A DNA stretch of 64,000 nucleotides from positions 80,082 through 144,081 of the forward strand of contig JAEKLQ010000021.1 in the NCBI GenBank assembly GCA_019509785.1. The letters run 5' to 3'. Both the position numbers and the translations under genes were made by a program. Within the stretch, counting starts at the first letter, position 1. Every line of letters begins with the position of its first letter. Under the pieces are notes generated by a model, which was given only the letters and a program-made list of their open reading frames with translations, was not told where the DNA came from and did not search any database. The stretch is from Fibrobacterota bacterium. Its GTDB lineage: Bacteria; Fibrobacterota; Fibrobacteria; UBA11236. Below are positions 1,766 to 11,337 of the stretch, one piece after another.

Positions 1766-2179
1766 TTTTGCCTCTTCTAAAGTCAGATCAGGTGTTGAGT
1801 ACGAAATTATAGGCAACATTCCCGGAACCAGCAACCCATTCCTTTGATTTTTATCAGGATAATTTCGATTTAAATCGCAAATTTGAAATAACTCCCCCAC
1901 ATTCTCTCCAAAAATTGCCAAAAATCCTCGATATAGAATCGATATCAAGCGACTTATCGTCAAATATTCAATTTTAATAGGCAAATACGAGAATACCGAG
2001 ACCTTATTGAGGGCAAAAGTAGCCAGTCAAGCAGCAAAACCTCTTTTTGAACAGGAGGAAGGACCGCATTCCGACTTAAACCCGTCTCCGGGGTGCTAAT
2101 TTTCCCGTGTCGCTTTCGCGCTCCCATCTCGTCACAACCTTACACACGCATTAATGACTCGCCGAAAGGAGGAACCCGG
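1766..2179. promoter_or_regulatory. AT-rich divergent intergenic/promoter region between ilvB (-) and the ECF sigma operon (+); contains the 12-bp palindrome CGATTTAAATCG (1866-1877), a TCGATAT-N4-TCGATATC pair (1928-1946), and an AAGGAGG Shine-Dalgarno at 2166-2172
   Basis: GC content is strikingly below the ~65% window average. Palindromes and direct repeats read directly from the sequence. No long ORF with credible composition. Confidence 0.45.
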
Positions 2180-2665
2180 CTGGAACTCCGGAGTACCGAA
2201 GATCTATACCGCCGCTATGGACCTATGGTCCTGAGGCGGTGCCGGCAACTGCTGCGCGATGAAGACGCCGCCCTGGATGCGCTCCAGGACGTCTTCTCCC
2301 GCTGGCTGGAACGTGCCGGGGAAAATCCGGAATATCCATCCAGTTTCTTCTACACCATGGCGACCCGCATTTGCATCGACCGCATCCGCAGCGCCGCCGT
2401 CCGGCACCGGAGCGACGATTCGCGGCTGGAGGAGATCGCTTCGGCGGAGGATATCGAAGGCGATTCCCGCGCGCGGCGCTTGCTGGACCGGATCTTCGGG
2501 CGCCAGCATGCCAGCACGCGGGTAATGGCGGTGATGCATTACGTCGACGGGCTCTCGTACGAGGAAGTAGGGGCCGAAGTGAAACTGACGGCGGCCGGCG
2601 TGCGGCGGCGATTGCAGCGGCTGCGCGAGCACGCGGCGAAATGGAACGGGGAGGGAAAATCATGA
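2180..2665 (+). CDS. ECF-family RNA polymerase sigma-70 factor (start codon uncertain: CTG at 2180 preceded by AAGGAGG, or ATG at 2225)
   Basis: Translation shows the sigma2 region (DLYRRYGPMVLRRCRQLLRDEDAALDALQDVFSRWLE) and sigma4 HTH region (MHYVDGLSYEEVGAEVKLTAAGVRRRLQRLRE). Its stop TGA (2663-2665) overlaps the ATG (2662-2664) of the next gene. Confidence 0.8.
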   Translation: MELRSTEDLYRRYGPMVLRRCRQLLRDEDAALDALQDVFSRWLERAGENPEYPSSFFYTMATRICIDRIRSAAVRHRSDDSRLEEIASAEDIEGDSRARRLLDRIFGRQHASTRVMAVMHYVDGLSYEEVGAEVKLTAAGVRRRLQRLREHAAKWNGEGKS

Positions 2666-3531
2666 GCCCAAGGCCCATGCCGGAACAGATGTTGGAACGC
2701 TACCGATTGGGCGAATTGCCCCCGGCGGCCATGGCGGATCTGCGCGCCCGCTGCGAGGCCGATCCGGAACTGCGGGCGCGCCTGGAAGCCCTCGATCGTT
2801 CCGATGCGGCCATCCTGGCGGCGTACCCGCCCGCGGCGATGGCGCGCGACCTGCTTTCGAGAAGGGCATCGGAAAAGGATGCGGGAAGGGAAACGGGAAC
2901 GAATGCGCGGCGATCCTCGCGGGCGGGAAGTCCCGGTCGGCGGCCGGGCTTCGGCCGTAAAGCCTTATGGGCCGCGCCCTCGGGGCTGGCATTGGCCTGC
3001 GGCCTCGTGCTGGCCGTGCGCCATCTCCCCGAACCCAGTAACACGCAAGTTACGGAAAGCCCCGCGGCCTACGCGGTCCGGCTCAAAGGGTCCGATGCCG
3101 GATTGGCCATCTTCCGTAAAGCCAAGGGAGGCGCCGAGCTCTTGCCCCCGCATTCCCTGGCGAAACCGGGCGATACCCTGCAAGTCTTCTACCATAGCCG
3201 CGGACCCGCGTTCGGGGCGATTTTCTCCGTGGACGGGGCCGGGGGGGTCACCTTGCATCTTCCCGAAGAAGGCGGAACGGCGACGGCGCTGCAAACGGGC
3301 GACCTTCTGCCTTTGCCGCATGCTTATCGACTGGACCGGGCCCCGCGCCTGGAACGGTTTTTCCTGATTACGGCCCCGCGCCCTTTCTCTGTAGACGGAT
3401 TCTTGCAACAGGCCCGGGCCGCCTTCGCGGTCCGGCATGAGGCGCTCGATTCCCTGTCGGGGCTGGAAGCGGGCTTCCGCCAATATCCTTATACCTTACG
3501 CAAGCCCGGGAAGGGCGAGGGATCGAAATGA
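2662..3531 (+). CDS. Membrane-spanning anti-sigma factor (RskA/ChrR-like N-terminal anti-sigma domain, one TM helix, ~170-aa periplasmic C-terminal domain)
   Basis: N-terminus MSPRPMPEQMLERYRLGELPP matches the L-x-x-Y-x-L-G-x-L anti-sigma signature. Hydrophobic segment ALWAAPSGLALACGLVLAV. ATGA overlap with the sigma factor upstream and with the caspase gene downstream (3528-3531). Confidence 0.7.
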   Translation: MSPRPMPEQMLERYRLGELPPAAMADLRARCEADPELRARLEALDRSDAAILAAYPPAAMARDLLSRRASEKDAGRETGTNARRSSRAGSPGRRPGFGRKALWAAPSGLALACGLVLAVRHLPEPSNTQVTESPAAYAVRLKGSDAGLAIFRKAKGGAELLPPHSLAKPGDTLQVFYHSRGPAFGAIFSVDGAGGVTLHLPEEGGTATALQTGDLLPLPHAYRLDRAPRLERFFLITAPRPFSVDGFLQQARAAFAVRHEALDSLSGLEAGFRQYPYTLRKPGKGEGSK

Positions 3532-5723
3532 AGATCTCATTCCGCTCAACCGGCTACGCATTGGCCTTGGCCATCGCTGCCTTGTCCGGGATCCCGGCTT
3601 CCGTGGCCCCGGCCTCCTTTGCTTCGAAGTCCGCCGTCTCGGCGCCCGCCGGCCCGGCGTCCGCCCCTTTGCGCCGCTTCGCCTTGGCCGTTGGCGTCAA
3701 CGACGGCGGTCCCGCTCGCGTTCGCTTACGCTATGCCGGCAGCGATGCCGCCAACTTCGCCGCCGTGATGGAGCGCTTCGGCGGAGTCGCGTCGCGCGAC
3801 ATGCGCGTCTTGCGCGAACCTGGCCGTCGCGAATTCCTGGAAGCGTTGGCCTCCATGCGCTCCGCGGTGGCGGCCGCGAACGCGGCCGGGCAACGGGCGG
3901 AATTGCTGGTCTATTATTCCGGCCATTCCGACGAAGCCGGCTTGTTGCTGGGCCGCGACCGCCTGGACTATTCCGAATTCCGCTCGCGCATCGATTCCAT
4001 TCCGGCGCGCATCCGCTTGGCGGTGGTGGATGCCTGCGCTTCGGGAGCCTTGACGCGCATCAAGGGCGGGAGCCGCTTGCCGGCCTTTTCGGTGGATCAA
4101 AGTTCCAACCTCAGCGGCTATGCCTTCCTCACTTCCAGCTCGGGCGCCGAGGCCTCGCAGGAATCGGACCGCATCCGCGCCTCCTATTTCACCCACTATC
4201 TGGTTTCGGGCCTGCGCGGCGCGGCCGATCGCAATCAGGACGGGCGGGTGACCTTAGGGGAGGCCTATGCCTTCGCTTTCCAGGAGACCTTGGCGCAGAC
4301 CGAAGGCAGCCAGGCGGGGGCGCAACACCCGAGTTACGATATGCGGCTGACGGGAACGGGCGATCTCGTGCTCACCGATTTGCGCGGGACCTCGGCGGGG
4401 TTGGTGCTGGCTCCCGCCGTACATGGCCGATTGTTCGTTCGTTCCTCGGCGGGAGATCTGGTGGCCGAATTGCACAAGCAATCCGGGGCCAAGATGGAGC
4501 TCGGCTTGGAGCCCGGGATTTACGACCTGGATTTGGACCAAGGCGATTCGCTTTTCCACGCGCTCGTGAAGTTGGATACCTTGGAACATGCCCCGGTCTC
4601 CCGTGCCGACTTGAACCTCGTGGCCCGGGAAAGCACGCGGAACCGAGGGGAGGCGGGGCCGGCCGCAGCGTCCATCGGCGCCCCCGATACCGCGCCCTCC
4701 ACCGAGCCACGCGAAAAAGCAACGGCCATTCCCGCGACCTGGATCCCGGCGCGCGCGGCGGTGGTTCCTTCGCTAGGCTACCCGGGAAGCGGCGCAGGGC
4801 CGTGGTCCCATAATCTTTCCGTCAATTTGCTTTCGGGCCGGGCGCAGGACATCAACGGCCTGCAATTTTCCTTGGGTGGGAACCGGGCCGAAGGGCGGGT
4901 GGCCGGCGTCCAATTTTCGCTAATGAATTTCGCATCGGGTCCGTCCACGGGTCTTCAGTACGGGGTCCTGGCCAATGCGCAAGCGCGCAACCATACCGGT
5001 TTCCAACTCAGCTTCGTCGCCAACAACGCCGACTCCCTCACGGGCCTGCAAGCCGGGGCCATCAACCATGCGGGCCGTCTCGAAGGCGTGCAGGCCGGAG
5101 CCATCAATGCCGCCGGGATCGGGGACGGAATCCAGCTGGGAGGCCTCAACGTGGCGGAGAGTCAGCGCGGACTCCAGGCGGGTCTCGTGAACATCGCGGA
5201 CAGCTCGCGCGGATTGCAGGCGGGCCTTTTCAATTATGCGACCCATGGGGAGGGGCTCGTCCTGGGCCTCGTCAGCGTCGTCCGGAACGGGATGCATGAT
5301 GCGGAGGCGACCTTCGATGATCGCTCCATGCTGCGGACGGCCTTTCTGCTGGGGGGACCGTACAATTACAACTACTTGTCTTTCGACATGAAGGCGCGAT
5401 ATCCACGCCACTTGTGGGGAGGGAGCGCCGGGGTGGGCGTGCATATCCCCTTGGCTTATGCCTTCGTCGATTTGGATGCGGGAGGCGGCCTGGTGTTCAA
5501 CGACGTGGATTGGGATAACCAGAGTTACACCGCCCGCTTCCGTTTGATCGGCGGTTATGCGCCCAGCCGTTGGTTCAACGTCTTCGGCGGATTCACCGCC
5601 AACCTGGAGATGTGGCCCGCATCGAGATTCCCCAATCTGAACCCCGATCGGAAGGGCGAGCGTTGGGGCGACGAAATCCGGGCGGAGAAATGGCCAGGTT
5701 TCGTGGTTGGGGTGAGGATATGA
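3528..5723 (+). CDS. Secreted caspase-family (peptidase C14, orthocaspase/metacaspase-like) protein with C-terminal tandem G-[LV]-Q-x-G-x-x-N repeat module and aromatic-rich C-terminal domain
   Basis: N-terminal signal peptide (MKISFRSTGYALALAIAALSGIPASVAPA). Caspase p20-like block with catalytic His (LLVYYSGHSDEAG) and Cys (LAVVDACASGAL). About 10 tandem repeats of a ~14-aa unit (GLQAGLVNIADSSR, GLQAGLFNYATHGE, GVQAGAINAAG...). ATGA overlaps at both ends. Confidence 0.8.
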   Translation: MKISFRSTGYALALAIAALSGIPASVAPASFASKSAVSAPAGPASAPLRRFALAVGVNDGGPARVRLRYAGSDAANFAAVMERFGGVASRDMRVLREPGRREFLEALASMRSAVAAANAAGQRAELLVYYSGHSDEAGLLLGRDRLDYSEFRSRIDSIPARIRLAVVDACASGALTRIKGGSRLPAFSVDQSSNLSGYAFLTSSSGAEASQESDRIRASYFTHYLVSGLRGAADRNQDGRVTLGEAYAFAFQETLAQTEGSQAGAQHPSYDMRLTGTGDLVLTDLRGTSAGLVLAPAVHGRLFVRSSAGDLVAELHKQSGAKMELGLEPGIYDLDLDQGDSLFHALVKLDTLEHAPVSRADLNLVARESTRNRGEAGPAAASIGAPDTAPSTEPREKATAIPATWIPARAAVVPSLGYPGSGAGPWSHNLSVNLLSGRAQDINGLQFSLGGNRAEGRVAGVQFSLMNFASGPSTGLQYGVLANAQARNHTGFQLSFVANNADSLTGLQAGAINHAGRLEGVQAGAINAAGIGDGIQLGGLNVAESQRGLQAGLVNIADSSRGLQAGLFNYATHGEGLVLGLVSVVRNGMHDAEATFDDRSMLRTAFLLGGPYNYNYLSFDMKARYPRHLWGGSAGVGVHIPLAYAFVDLDAGGGLVFNDVDWDNQSYTARFRLIGGYAPSRWFNVFGGFTANLEMWPASRFPNLNPDRKGERWGDEIRAEKWPGFVVGVRI

Positions 5724-6592
5724 GAAAGCGCGTCTTGGCGGCGGCGCTTCTGGTCCTGGGCGGGTGCATCGAGAATCCCGGCGTGGATAAGGATTTGGCC
5801 GATCGGCACAATCGCCTCAGCGCCGACTTCACGGTATCGGAAGCGGCGGATCGCGTGCGGCTTCGCCTCCAGCGCACGGCCGCGGGTACCGAACTTTATC
5901 TCGCCAACCTTACCGACCAGCCCATCGATTCCCTGGATTTCTTCGCCCAGGCCTCGGATGAAGGGCCCCTGCTTTATTCCGGCGGCATAGGCGCCGGGAA
6001 TCCGGTTTTCGACGACTCCCCGGTCGCAGAATTCAACGGAAGGGTGGTGGGCCTGCAAAGCGGGATGGAAGCGGATCTCGGTCCCTTGACCGGCGCATTC
6101 CCCCGGAATCTGGATGAGGCCGACCTGATTTTCGTTACCCTGGCGGTAGACTCGATTTCGAATCCGGTCGTAAACCGGCACGTCGGATATTACTCCGGAG
6201 TCTTCACGGCCCGGGATTCAACGGGATCGGCCATCGAGGGGACCCTGCGGGGGTTGGTTTCCGATCACGGATTCCACTTCTGGTTGCGCACGGGCAGCCA
6301 TGTGTGGGGAGCCCTCAATGGGGATATCCGCGGAGACTCGGTTTATGGGATCAAATACGGCGATGCGGTGGACTATGCCAGGCGGTACGCCGCCACCACC
6401 CTCGCCGTCGCCCTGGATGCGCGCACGGATGATTCGATTGGATTCGCAGCGGTGCTCAGCGGCTTGTGGGGTCCGGGGAATTTCCTGGACCTACGCGTAA
6501 CGCTTTCCCGGTCCGATCCCCAGCGCTGGCCCCACATAACCCTTAAAGCGAACCGCGCCACGCTTCCCAATCCACCGGCGGTTGGGCCATGA
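5720..6592 (+). CDS. Hypothetical lipoprotein (lipobox LVLGGC followed by IENPGVD), paralog of the next gene
   Basis: ATG at 5720 lies inside an ATGA overlap with the caspase gene stop (5721-5723). Signal peptide plus lipobox cysteine. Shares motifs with the next ORF (ENPG[VL]D, VRLRL[QE]R, ELYLANL/RLYLENL, DSL[DE]F, EADLGPL[TA]G, LDLR[VI]xL[SA]RS). Confidence 0.6.
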   Translation: MRKRVLAAALLVLGGCIENPGVDKDLADRHNRLSADFTVSEAADRVRLRLQRTAAGTELYLANLTDQPIDSLDFFAQASDEGPLLYSGGIGAGNPVFDDSPVAEFNGRVVGLQSGMEADLGPLTGAFPRNLDEADLIFVTLAVDSISNPVVNRHVGYYSGVFTARDSTGSAIEGTLRGLVSDHGFHFWLRTGSHVWGALNGDIRGDSVYGIKYGDAVDYARRYAATTLAVALDARTDDSIGFAAVLSGLWGPGNFLDLRVTLSRSDPQRWPHITLKANRATLPNPPAVGP

Positions 6593-7479
6593 AGGCGGCG
6601 TTAGCGGCGGTGGCCCTTTTAGGATTTTCCGCCTGCCTCGAGAATCCGGGTTTGGACTGGGGGCTGGAGAACAAGCAAGACCTGGCCCGCCGGGAATTCG
6701 ACGTGAACGGAAATAGCGTGCGCGTCCGTCTCGAGCGCAGGAATGGCGAAACCCGCCTCTATCTCGAGAACCTGGATCGAAAGGATCTGGATTCCCTGGA
6801 GTTCGCGATCCAGGTTTGCCCGGACCAGGCGATGTTCGCGATCGCCCAACCATATTATCCGGGGCCGATGCAATTGGTCTACTGCGCCGATCCCATCGCT
6901 GAACCCCATGGCACGGCCATCCGCCTGCCTGGCCGCTCCGAAGCCGACTTGGGCCCCTTGGCGGGAGATTACCCGGAAGAACTGAATCGGGTCGGCATCG
7001 CTTTCGTTCCGCTCCGCGATACGCGTAACTCGCCGCGACTCGGAAGCGATCGCTTCGGTTATTACCAAGGAACATGGTTGGAGAACCAAATTAAGGCCGC
7101 GCCCAGATCGGGCTCGCTACGCGGATTTATCCTCCGTGACGGTTATTTCTTGTTTCTGCTCCGGGAAGCCGGTGTGTATTACGGCCCCTTAAGGGGCGTC
7201 CTGGCCGGTGATTCATTGATCGATGCCTACTATCTGACCAATTGGGAATACCACCAGGCTGAGGCGTTGACGGATCCGGCCCACCCTCCGGCCCTCCTCC
7301 TTCCCGCGGCCGGGTCCCCGGATTCGCTCGGGTTCACGGGTCGTTTCATCGTCCATTTCCTTCCAGGACGTCCCGATACCCTGGACCTGCGGATTGCCCT
7401 GGCGCGTTCCGCCGGCCTCGAATGGCCCAAGCCTGTGGCCGCGATCGATTCCGATCTTCCCGCGTCGAATCCGAAGTGA
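6589..7479 (+). CDS. Hypothetical lipoprotein (lipobox LLGFSAC followed by LENPGLD), tandem paralog of the previous gene
   Basis: ATGA overlap (6589-6592) with the preceding gene. Signal peptide plus lipobox. Collinear conserved motifs with the previous ORF, ~30% identity by eye. Confidence 0.6.
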   Translation: MKAALAAVALLGFSACLENPGLDWGLENKQDLARREFDVNGNSVRVRLERRNGETRLYLENLDRKDLDSLEFAIQVCPDQAMFAIAQPYYPGPMQLVYCADPIAEPHGTAIRLPGRSEADLGPLAGDYPEELNRVGIAFVPLRDTRNSPRLGSDRFGYYQGTWLENQIKAAPRSGSLRGFILRDGYFLFLLREAGVYYGPLRGVLAGDSLIDAYYLTNWEYHQAEALTDPAHPPALLLPAAGSPDSLGFTGRFIVHFLPGRPDTLDLRIALARSAGLEWPKPVAAIDSDLPASNPK

Positions 7480-7577: not shown

Positions 7578-8249
7578 ATGCAAACCCTTAAAGACCTATC
7601 CCCCGCCGATTGGCCCCGTGAAAAGCTGATGGAGCGGGGCCCCGGACATCTGTCGAATGCCGAACTGTTGGCCGTAGTATTGGGCCGCGGCCAGCCCGGC
7701 AAGGACGTACTCACCCTGGCTGGCGAAGTGGTGGAAACGTTATCCGGCCTGGAAGACGAGTTGACCCTGGACACCTTGCTGGAAATCAAAGGCATCGGCC
7801 TGGGCAAGGGCTGCCAGATCCTCGCCAGTATCGAGTTCTCGCGGCGTTTCCTCACGGCGCGAAAGAAGCTGAAGGTGCGCACGCCCAAGGATGCTCTGCC
7901 CTTGCTCGGGGCGTTGCGCGCGGCCGCGCAGGAGTGCGTGGTGGTGCTCACCCTGGACGGCAACAACCAGATCATCAAGTCGCATACCATCACGCGCGGG
8001 CTCGCCAACCAAAGCCAAATCCATCCGCGGGAAACCTTCTATCCGGCCATCCAGGACCGGGCCGTGAGCATCCTGGTGGCGCACAACCATCCTTCGGGAA
8101 ACCTGGAGCCTTCGGAAGCCGATTTGATCGCGACGCGGCGATTGGTGGAGGTCTCGAAGACCTTGGGGATCCCGGTGCTGGATCACCTCATCGTGGCGGA
8201 GGGCGGGTTCTTGTCGATCCGGGAGAAGTATCCGGCTTATTTCGGCTGA
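7578..8249 (+). CDS. radC: RadC-family JAB/MPN (JAMM) domain protein (UPF0758)
   Basis: JAMM motif HNHPSGNLEPSEADLIATRRL, N-terminal HhH-like LSNAELLAVVLGRG. AAAGGAG RBS upstream of the ATG at 7578. Confidence 0.85.
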   Translation: MQTLKDLSPADWPREKLMERGPGHLSNAELLAVVLGRGQPGKDVLTLAGEVVETLSGLEDELTLDTLLEIKGIGLGKGCQILASIEFSRRFLTARKKLKVRTPKDALPLLGALRAAAQECVVVLTLDGNNQIIKSHTITRGLANQSQIHPRETFYPAIQDRAVSILVAHNHPSGNLEPSEADLIATRRLVEVSKTLGIPVLDHLIVAEGGFLSIREKYPAYFG

Positions 8250-8280
8250 GCGCTCAGGGAGGTATCGTGCCGTTCGGCGA

Positions 8281-8302
8281 CGCCTCAGACCGGGCTGAGG
8301 CG
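8281..8302. terminator. Candidate bidirectional terminator hairpin between convergent radC and the tlpA-like gene (CGCCTCAG-accggg-CTGAGGCG, 8-bp perfect stem)
   Basis: Inverted repeat read directly from the sequence, located in the 55-bp gap between two convergent stop codons. No strong U-tract. Confidence 0.5.
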
Positions 8303-8304
8303 CA

Positions 8305-9198
8305 TCAGAGGTATTCCTTGATCCACTTCTCGATGTCGCGCTGTTGATGCAGCCCCACCTCCATGCGCTGGATGACGCCTTGCTTATCGATCACCGCCAA
8401 GGTCGGGAAGGCGAGGGCCTGGTATTGGTTGGTCGTGATGTGGCCGATATCGTTGAAGAGCGGATAGGAAAGCTTGGCGGTGGACTGGAAGGCCTTCAGA
8501 TCCGGAAGGCTTTCCGAACTCACGCCGATGATCTCGAGGCCTTTGCCATGGTACTTCTTGTAGACCGCATCCAGGATGGGCAGCGACATGCGGCAGGGGC
8601 CGCACCAGGTGGCCCAGAAGTCCACCAGTACCACCTTGCCCTTGTTCTGCGCCAGCGCGCCGGCGTCGCCGGAGTAGTATTTCCCGTCGAGCGCGGGCGC
8701 GGGGCCTCCCACCAGCATCTGGGTGATGACGCGCATGTCTTCCGGCTTCGGGGAGAGGGCCATCTTCTGCTTGAAGGCTTTGCCATCGCGGCCCACGCGC
8801 AGTTCCACCATTTCGCCTACGCCTTTGGAATGGATGGTATCCAATAGGGTCTTGCGGCCATGCAGGTCGGTCGCGTTGATGGAGAGGATGAAGTCCCCTT
8901 CCTTGAGGCCGGCTTGATCGGCGGAGGTACCGCGGAAAACCTGCTGGACCTTGACCACGCCTTCGGCCGTGGTAGGCGCGTAGGCGGCGGGAATCTCGTT
9001 TTGGGGGACATCGGCGATGGCCACGCCGAGCCAGGCGGATGGCTTTTTTGCCGCCTGGGTCGGCGATGCAGCGGGCGCGTCGGGGACGACCGTTGCCCCG
9101 ACCGAGGCCGGAGCCGAAGCGGGATCGGTCGATTTATGGGCGGAACCCGCCGCGGCAATGCATCCGAGGAAGGCGATGAAGAGGCCCAAACGCGACAT
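8305..9198 (-). CDS. TlpA-like thiol:disulfide oxidoreductase lipoprotein with PDZ domain (thioredoxin fold, WCGPC active site)
   Basis: Signal peptide/lipobox (LFIAFLGC), PDZ-like block ([16 protein letters not shown]), thioredoxin motif [19 protein letters not shown]. Confidence 0.8.

Positions 9199-10314: not shown

Positions 10315-11337
<1,023 letters not shown>

Follow-up and report, generated by a model that had tools for sequence, protein, structure and literature searches.

A caspase-family protein on a predicted outer-membrane solenoid-barrel anchor as a candidate site-1 protease in an extracytoplasmic function sigma factor operon

Introduction

The classic paradigm for periplasmic site-1 proteolysis of an anti-sigma factor is DegS-RseA-sigmaE, in which DegS is activated by the C-termini of outer-membrane proteins. 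Caspase homologues are abundant in bacteria, but substrate and physiological role are known for almost none of them, and they usually come up just as possible cell-death proteases. Two precedents connect the caspase fold with anti-sigma factors. In craspase, the TPR-CHAT protein Csx29, working with Cas7-11, cleaves Csx30 and so releases the extracytoplasmic function (ECF) sigma factor RpoE. The craspase preprint assigns the C-terminal domains of some Csx30 proteins to DUF4384, which it describes as 'often fused to protease domains'. In the DdvA-DdvS system of Myxococcus xanthus, the anti-sigma factor carries a fused TPR-CHAT domain on its periplasmic side, and its inactivation has been proposed to start with proteolysis by this domain. 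The operon association of metacaspases with sigma factors has itself been known since 2012, without a mechanism. Of the five metacaspases of M. xanthus, four are encoded in operons together with sigma-70-family genes, and the same association was seen in Anaeromyxobacter, Haliangium, Sorangium, Ralstonia and Fibrobacter, with programmed cell death as the speculated role (Asplund-Samuelsson et al. 2012). Here we describe an operon of this type in a stretch of 64,000 nucleotides, the window, from a Fibrobacterota bacterium (GTDB lineage Bacteria; Fibrobacterota; Fibrobacteria; UBA11236; assembly GCA_019509785.1, contig JAEKLQ010000021.1, positions 80,082 to 144,081 of the forward strand). It is centred on an open reading frame (ORF) for a 731-residue caspase-like protein, which an original prediction, made from the letters of the window, had described as a secreted orthocaspase-like protein with tandem repeats and an aromatic-rich C-terminal domain. 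We propose that this protein may well serve a three-component ECF signalling system as a protease that is tethered to the outer membrane, faces the periplasm and makes the site-1 cut in the anti-sigma factor.

The locus shares features with each of the described systems and differs from all of them. As with DegS-RseA, an envelope cue would prompt a periplasmic protease to make the site-1 cut, and the target would be a single-pass anti-sigma factor; DegS, however, is a serine protease anchored in the inner membrane, whereas the window protein is an operon-encoded cysteine protease with a predicted outer-membrane anchor. Craspase likewise couples a caspase-fold protease genetically to an anti-sigma-like protein and an ECF sigma factor, and DUF4384 is common to some Csx30 proteins and the family of the window anti-sigma factor. 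Craspase is, by contrast, cytoplasmic, RNA-guided, CRISPR-associated and of CHAT rather than C14 type, while the window protease is predicted to sit in the periplasm on an outer-membrane tether and has no CRISPR link. DdvA-DdvS also assigns the first cut of an anti-sigma factor to a periplasmic caspase-fold domain, but there the protease-like domain is part of the anti-sigma protein and works within a dimer, whereas the window encodes a separate, predicted outer-membrane protein of the C14 family and a DUF4384-like anti-sigma factor. FecA-FecR-FecI has a similar three-component arrangement, its operon encoding an ECF sigma factor, a single-pass anti-sigma factor and an outer-membrane protein whose N-terminal domain is periplasmic. 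The window ORF lacks the STN domain, plug, 22-stranded barrel and TonB box of a FecA-type TonB-dependent transducer; its predicted periplasmic domain is a protease, and the anti-sigma factor is not of FecR type. Set beside metacaspases and orthocaspases (MEROPS C14B; AtMC4/AtMC9, Yca1, MaOC1), the protein is ~18% identical to the solved metacaspases, lies in an ECF sigma/anti-sigma operon and is predicted to be exported and held at the outer membrane by a solenoid and barrel, without a type I prodomain or type II linker.

In the literature searched we found no description of the solenoid-barrel anchor, the shared cleavage-type motif, the promoter or the caspase/anti-sigma mechanism reported below, and no function for LA_2272, VC2662 or DUF4384. 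The main text of the ECF reclassification paper makes no mention of caspase, DUF4384 or C14.

Results

Domain architecture of the caspase-like protein

The ORF (3528..5723, forward strand) begins with ATG, and its product is 100% identical to the GenBank entry 'MAG: caspase family protein [Fibrobacteres bacterium]'. More than 3,000 homologous protein clusters match it, and full-length relatives of ~40% identity were found in Myxococcota. We assign with high confidence an architecture of signal peptide, C14 protease domain, beta-sandwich, linker, LA_2272 beta-solenoid and 8-stranded barrel. A full-length AlphaFold2 model based on 61 homologues, with a mean predicted local distance difference test score (pLDDT) of 84.9, is divided into a disordered N-terminus containing a signal-peptide-like stretch, an alpha/beta domain (residues 48-275), a beta-sandwich (281-365), a disordered linker (370-401) and an all-beta region (405-731) with pLDDT >95. 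The putative Sec-type signal peptide covers approximately residues 1-32 (3528..3626), with K2 and R6, a hydrophobic core at 9-21 and a heuristically placed cleavage site between ASFA and S. By hydropathy it is the sole strongly hydrophobic stretch of the protein. No lipobox is present, and C170 is the single cysteine. The beta-sandwich (4368..4622) is modelled with seven or eight strands at pLDDT 84-95.

The catalytic domain (residues 48-275; 3669..4352) has the caspase-hemoglobinase alpha/beta fold of Peptidase C14 (clan CD). Pfam Peptidase_C14 (PF00656) matches residues 49-271 at E=4e-7 and 30.4 bits against a cut-off of 21.4, spanning profile positions 1-224 of 233. The match to NCBIfam NF047832 (caspase, EACC1-associated type) reached 55.2 bits and missed its cut-off of 140. 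In an alignment with metacaspases through the 61-homologue profile, YYSGH133S falls on YSGHG and D168-x-C170-x-SG (DsCaSG) on DSCHSG, with D168-A-C170 corresponding to 'DSC', and D73 pairs with the Asp of the '...CIND' motif that follows strand 1. By this alignment His133 (3924-3926) and Cys170 (4035-4037) form a dyad at the metacaspase catalytic positions. The equivalents of D73 (3744-3746) and D168 (4029-4031) in the TbMCA2 and Yca1 structures are residues that we take to line the S1 pocket selecting Arg or Lys, and the protease is predicted to cleave after Arg or Lys. His133, Cys170 and both aspartates are present in 81 of 81 species-level homologues, which argues for kept catalysis. The caspase p20-like core (GHS...DACASG) named in the original prediction is therefore borne out by SGHS at H133, DACASG at C170 and a Pfam match above the gathering threshold; the dyad does align with C14 positions, and the metacaspase-like Arg/Lys specificity suggested at the same time gains support from two S1 acidic positions that are both present and invariant.

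Residues 405-585 (4740..5282) are predicted to form a beta-solenoid of 14-16-residue repeats, with clear G-x-Q units at 444-575 (4857-5252). Nine G-[LVIF]-Q units begin at residues 444, 460, 475, 491, 506, 520, 534, 548 and 562, with successive spacings of 16, 15, 16, 15, 14, 14, 14 and 14 residues; 2000 composition-preserving shuffles gave a mean of 0.68 such units and a maximum of 5. A tenth, degenerate unit (GLVLGL) starts at 576 and the model adds degenerate coils at 405-443. Tandem Repeats Finder detected no tandem repeats in the DNA of this region, and the protein repeats are thus old and diverged. Caspase homologues (L001-L080) carry from 2 to 15 recognisable G-x-Q units (median 8), so solenoid length is variable in the family. 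The repeat belongs to the NCBIfam 'LA_2272 family surface repeat' (NF047436), the model of which matches 5 stretches at 54 bits (cut-off 25). LA_2272 and VC2662 proteins (NF047436, NF047437, NF047435) have the same 14-15-residue G-L-Q-x-G-x-x-N repeat. They differ from the window protein in that LA_2272/LA_2273 are lipoproteins and VC2662 has 187 residues, whereas the window ORF adds a caspase domain and a C-terminal barrel and has no lipobox. The VC2662 equivalog model (NF047437) gave 37.6 bits against a cut-off of 140, in a match confined to the repeat region, and the LA_2272/LA_2273 lipoprotein model (NF047435) gave 10.9 bits against a cut-off of 30. Deletion of VC2662 had no phenotype in a V. 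cholerae ompU-mutant background.

The solenoid leads into a predicted 8-stranded, OmpA-like beta-barrel at residues 589-731 (5292..5720), which ends in the motif WPGFxxGVR[IFL]. A separate model of residues 400-731 reached pLDDT 95.4 with a predicted template modelling score (pTM) of 0.86, and the modelled fold is an 8-stranded antiparallel barrel. Hydrophobicity alternates along all 8 strands: family-mean Kyte-Doolittle values lie between +1.2 and +2.9 for one, presumably lipid-facing, side and between -0.2 and -1.4 for the opposite side. Of 61 sequences, 56 end in I, F, L, Y or M, a beta-signal with a hydrophobic end. In the last 150 residues, which end VGVRI, Gly makes up 12%, Phe 7.3%, Tyr 4.7% and Trp 4.0%, compared with Phe 4.2%, Tyr 2.9% and Trp 1.1% in the whole protein. 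No outer-membrane barrel family of Pfam or NCBIfam was matched, and the relation to OmpA is at fold level only. These results agree with what had been read from the periodicity and composition of the C-terminal region. The ~10 repeats expected at ~440-580 correspond to nine clear units and the degenerate one at 576, the Tyr/Trp/Phe/Gly-rich C-terminus is evident from its composition, and the suspected beta-helix or beta-roll is a confidently modelled solenoid rather than a disordered segment. The predicted barrel also supports the suggestion of an outer-membrane barrel or anchor. The repeat family, which the original prediction could not name, is the LA_2272 repeat.

Orientation of the anchor and its relatives

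All known outer-membrane barrels, to our knowledge, have a periplasmic C-terminus. Combined with an even number of strands, this would place the solenoid and everything N-terminal to it in the periplasm. The barrel is connected by three short turns of 3-6 residues and by four loops, of which one is equally short and one long (698-716); in this orientation the 3-6-residue turns would be periplasmic and loop 698-716 extracellular.

Relatives of the anchor point the same way. An exhaustive phmmer search with residues 400-731 returned 5,712 representative clusters, 1,609 of them at E<=1e-10. Some of these relatives consist of the module alone (350-500 residues) and others have differing N-terminal domains. 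Protein P0366 carries an STN domain and a CarboxypepD_reg-like domain, and P0288 an STN-like match (E=2e-5); the window ORF itself has no STN. Both genes (L083 5001-6782; L085 4001-5728) lie directly after an ECF sigma gene and a FecR/FecR_C anti-sigma gene. Such proteins, in which STN or an STN-like domain is joined to an LA_2272 solenoid and an 8-stranded barrel, seem to be FecA replacements of a kind not yet described, within a FecI-FecR-FecA arrangement, and the anchor seems, as judged from these sequences, to recur as the outer-membrane member of sigma/anti-sigma triads. Since STN meets FecR in the periplasm, the N-terminal domains of the solenoid-barrel anchor would face the periplasm. 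We therefore favour a periplasm-facing rather than a cell-surface location for the protease domain. The original prediction had allowed for either; its periplasmic half agrees with the even strand number and the STN-bearing relatives, and its cell-surface half is disfavoured. A module-only paralogue, P0243 (501 residues, L084 3541-5046), whose N-terminal 200 residues have no Pfam domain, is encoded immediately upstream of a canonical caspase triad. Another relative, P0247, has no sigma gene nearby.

A conserved sigma/anti-sigma/caspase triad

The caspase gene is the third of five genes linked by ATGA stop/start overlaps, which encode an ECF sigma factor, a putative anti-sigma factor, the protease and two lipoproteins. 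The sigma gene (2093..2665, forward strand), the stop of which overlaps the next start, encodes a protein with the sigma2 and sigma4 regions of an ECF sigma factor. It matches Pfam Sigma70_r2 (E=3.9e-12), Sigma70_ECF and Sigma70_r4_2, as well as TIGR02937 (E=3.8e-19, 68.9 bits, cut-off 42.9). The anti-sigma gene (2662..3531, forward strand) encodes a single-pass protein comprising a putative N-terminal sigma-binding region (residues 1-95), one transmembrane helix (101-119; 2962-3018) preceded by a basic stretch and with a hydropathy peak of 1.93 at residue 101, and a DUF4384-like periplasmic domain (144-289). It matches the NCBIfam model 'antisigma' at E=1.8e-8, under the model cut-off. DUF4384 is weak in the window protein itself (E=0.005) and is matched by 22 of 40 homologues. 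The top PDB profile match, the ChrR anti-sigma domain, is not significant (E=0.39), and the HxxxCxxC zinc motif is absent from the protein.

Conservation was assessed with one genome per species (GTDB). Relatives were confirmed in 542 of the first 600 candidate stretches, and at least that many therefore exist. Operon structure was scored by tblastn, using the window sigma and anti-sigma proteins, in the best 80 loci, of which 72 were assessable. Sigma, anti-sigma and caspase genes occur in this order on one strand at 63 of the 72, and the anti-sigma gene lies directly upstream of the caspase gene at 69. The triad is found in Fibrobacterota, Myxococcota, Spirochaetota (Leptospirales, Treponema), Latescibacterota, Eiseniibacteriota, Fermentibacteria and Bdellovibrionales, and all-against-all clustering of ORFs from the 80 loci gave no recurrent neighbour beyond it. 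This conserved operon, of which the original prediction said nothing, suggests a probable function for the caspase protein.

Three candidate readings were rejected. An apparent anti-sigma/caspase fusion ORF (L062 5077-8283, 1069 residues) has an Arg-rich middle section of 100 residues and is an out-of-frame read-through, from a frameshift or overlap artefact; no such fusion was present among the 120 best anti-sigma homologues. P0282, taken for a non-caspase relative of the anchor, is a frameshifted caspase-family gene inside a normal triad. Homotypic pairing of the beta-sandwich (276-369) with the anti-sigma periplasmic domain found no basis in an hhalign comparison (probability 0.2%, 3 aligned columns).

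Shared R-x-K-G motifs in protease and anti-sigma factor

Caspases are cut in the L2, or intersubunit, loop during activation; in caspase-3 the catalytic residue is Cys163 and the cut follows Asp175. In the window protease the corresponding loop, with pLDDT <50 at residues 178-190, contains R177-I-K179-G180-G181 (4056..4070), 7-11 residues past the catalytic Cys. All 81 sequences have R177, K179 and G180, and 80 of them G181; we propose the motif as a zymogen self-cleavage site. The anti-sigma factor carries R140-L-K142-G143 (3079..3090) in its juxtamembrane linker. The region past the transmembrane helix is variable in length and sequence, with indels on both flanks of the motif, save for [E]-x-[T]-R140-x-K142-G143. 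K142 and G143 are found in 56 of 56 sequences and R140 in 48; a second alignment has R140 and K142 in 40 of 40. A site-1 cut after K142 is proposed. A further candidate, E368-x-T-x-x-R373-G374, stands at the beginning of the variable disordered linker at residues 370-401 (4629..4730 for motif and linker), which is of low pLDDT and variable length. Here R373 is invariant across the 81 sequences, G374 is kept in 79 of them, and the position is a possible release site. T-x-x-[KR]-G occurs 2.3 times per protease, compared with 0.41 in shuffles.

Given that the protease is predicted to be Arg/Lys-specific and that the same R-x-K-G is found in its own activation loop and in the exposed linker of its partner, the system would most simply be read as a self-activating protease that makes the site-1 cut in that partner. 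We are moderately confident that the anti-sigma factor is its substrate.

A candidate promoter upstream of the sigma gene

A dyad, GGTGACA(C/G)-N15-GGTGTT, precedes sigma residue 36 by ~55-100 nt in ~50 of 63 related loci, which span several phyla (L003-L080). It is probably an autoregulated, cognate ECF promoter, and it could be used for genome-wide definition of the ECF regulon. The window and its nearest relative retain just a degenerate dyad at the homologous position; in the window this is a weak match (2103..2137, forward strand; cGTGTCG...CTCGTCA), placed by alignment with L001 and L002. The pattern GT[GA]ACA-N14-17-GTGTT has no match within the 64-kb window, and counts of sigma-70 promoters and intrinsic terminators within the operon were at chance level.

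The start of the sigma gene is ambiguous between 2093 and 2230. The longest ORF begins at GTG 2093, yet the promoter-like element lies inside that extension, and the true start is probably downstream; gene callers give the orthologue in L081 as 146 residues. A conserved AGGAGG (2168-2173) is followed 7 nt on by a CTG that is conserved in L001 and L002, making a non-canonical CTG start possible.

Discussion

Our analysis provides a molecular model for how a bacterial caspase homologue might act in trans-envelope signalling. Architecture, folds, conservation of the dyad and S1 positions, operon, promoter and shared motifs come directly from sequences and structure models; the membrane topology, cleavage events, order of steps and kind of signal are inferred. 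A metacaspase-type cysteine protease would be exported by the Sec pathway and held by its C-terminal 8-stranded barrel in the outer membrane. The protease and beta-sandwich would hang into the periplasm from a rod built of ~12 LA_2272 coils, to which they are joined by a flexible linker ~30 residues long. An envelope signal would lead to activation of the protease by a cut between K and G of R-x-K-G-G in its own L2 loop. The active protease would then make the site-1 cut, between K and G of R-x-K-G, in the anti-sigma factor between its transmembrane helix and DUF4384-like periplasmic domain. Intramembrane proteolysis would subsequently free the sigma factor, which would transcribe the operon from its own ECF-type promoter. 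The caspase-fold precedents of Csx29-Csx30-RpoE and DdvA-DdvS count in favour of such a site-1 protease.

Several observations weigh against this model. The full-length structure prediction has a pTM of 0.52 and thus gives the inter-domain geometry with low confidence. NCBIfam names the LA_2272 repeat a 'surface' repeat. One anchor relative, P0367 (L088 1-1758), joins a partial Ser/Thr kinase mid-domain to a beta-sandwich, an ExTxxRG motif, solenoid and barrel with no transmembrane segment; it is at a contig end and may be an assembly chimera, and if real it conflicts with an outer-membrane anchor. The R-x-K-G motif is just four residues long and could be structural. The promoter match in the window is poor. 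The P2 residues in the protease L2 motif show no co-variation with those in the anti-sigma motif over 56 loci (Fisher p=0.77), and co-transcription, taken alone, would fit the protease equally well as an output of the regulon.

This last interpretation is possible, if somewhat doubtful. The anti-sigma factor would sense envelope stress through its DUF4384-like domain and be cut by DegS/Prc and RseP-type proteases, and the induced caspase would degrade damaged envelope proteins or remodel the envelope. Many ECF operons do include effector genes, the protease gene follows the sigma and anti-sigma genes in one transcription unit whose promoter looks autoregulated, and the two motifs show no co-variation at P2. 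It leaves unexplained, however, why an exposed and otherwise variable anti-sigma linker should retain a near-invariant R-x-K-G that matches the protease L2 motif, why STN signalling domains occupy the same anchor in FecI/FecR operons, and why the triad and nothing else is conserved across phyla. A reading that retains the signalling role but dispenses with proteolysis by the caspase has in its favour the parallel architecture of the STN-solenoid-barrel proteins in FecI/FecR operons: the caspase domain would be a binding or sensor module like STN in FecA that passes a conformational signal to the anti-sigma factor, which other proteases then cut. Pseudo-orthocaspases exist in other lineages (PMC6426788). 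The unbroken conservation of the dyad and both S1 aspartates nevertheless makes this very unlikely.

The programmed cell death speculated for the sigma-metacaspase operons of Myxococcus and Fibrobacter (Asplund-Samuelsson et al. 2012) corresponds to a module in which an executioner caspase, inhibited by the anti-sigma DUF4384 and activated by, for example, phage or development, degrades envelope proteins and kills the cell. The frequent fusion of DUF4384 to proteases and the defence links of Craspase and SAVED-CHAT systems lend it some plausibility. PADLOC, however, returned zero matches for the five operon proteins, the operon neighbours are housekeeping genes (ilvB, radC) in stable synteny rather than a defence island, and four such operons in M. 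xanthus fit signalling paralogues better than suicide modules; we judge this role distinctly improbable. Least probable of all is a surface-exposed protease or adhesin, with solenoid and caspase outside the cell as in an autotransporter, external substrates and a purely regulatory link to the sigma factor. The 'surface' label of the repeat would suit it, but eight strands are not the 12 or 16 needed for polypeptide passage, the barrel is not a 12-stranded translocator and the autotransporter family PF03797 is not matched. The strand parity and periplasmic C-terminus discussed above, and STN-bearing relatives that must be periplasmic to meet FecR, would place the N-terminal domains on the other side of the membrane.

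Should the site-1 protease model hold, it would represent a third kind of periplasmic protease-gated anti-sigma switch, after the DegS-type and CHAT-fused types. The family offers a concrete candidate substrate, the co-encoded anti-sigma factor with its R-x-K-G site, together with a defined output in the form of an ECF regulon with a recognisable promoter, and it occurs in tractable organisms, M. xanthus reportedly having four such operons. The uncharacterised LA_2272 repeat-barrel module would similarly acquire a function, that of anchoring signalling proteins in the outer membrane, and in some FecI/FecR operons it would also take the place of TonB-dependent transducers. A more speculative and rather unlikely extension is that the LA_2272 solenoid and 8-stranded barrel form a general and hitherto unrecognised outer-membrane partner of ECF sigma/anti-sigma pairs, alternative to TonB-dependent transducers, of which the caspase version is a trans-envelope ruler. 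The rigid solenoid, with its 2-15 units across species, and the linker would set the depth of the protease below the outer membrane, and R-x-K-G of the inner-membrane anti-sigma factor would be reached only upon a change in envelope geometry or outer-membrane integrity. The caspase protein would then sense periplasmic spacing and relay the signal by cleavage, not conformational change.

Accessory and neighbouring genes

The two genes that complete the operon (5720-6592 and 6589-7479, forward strand) encode paralogous lipoproteins, 32% identical to each other, with lipoboxes LGGC and FSAC. They are translationally coupled to the protease gene through ATGA overlaps and match no Pfam or NCBIfam family. 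An 85%-identical relative, L081, has a single lipoprotein homologue of 106 residues (8097-8417). The lipoprotein genes are clade-specific and not present at other loci.

Further downstream, two secreted proteins are encoded on the reverse strand. A fusion of PDZ and thioredoxin/AhpC-TSA domains (8305-9198) adjoins radC and is syntenic with the operon in L081. A second protein (10315-11337), also syntenic in L081, combines many Asp-rich thrombospondin type-3-like repeats (DKDGFQDxDGCPDPDND) with a C-terminal OmpA peptidoglycan-binding domain.

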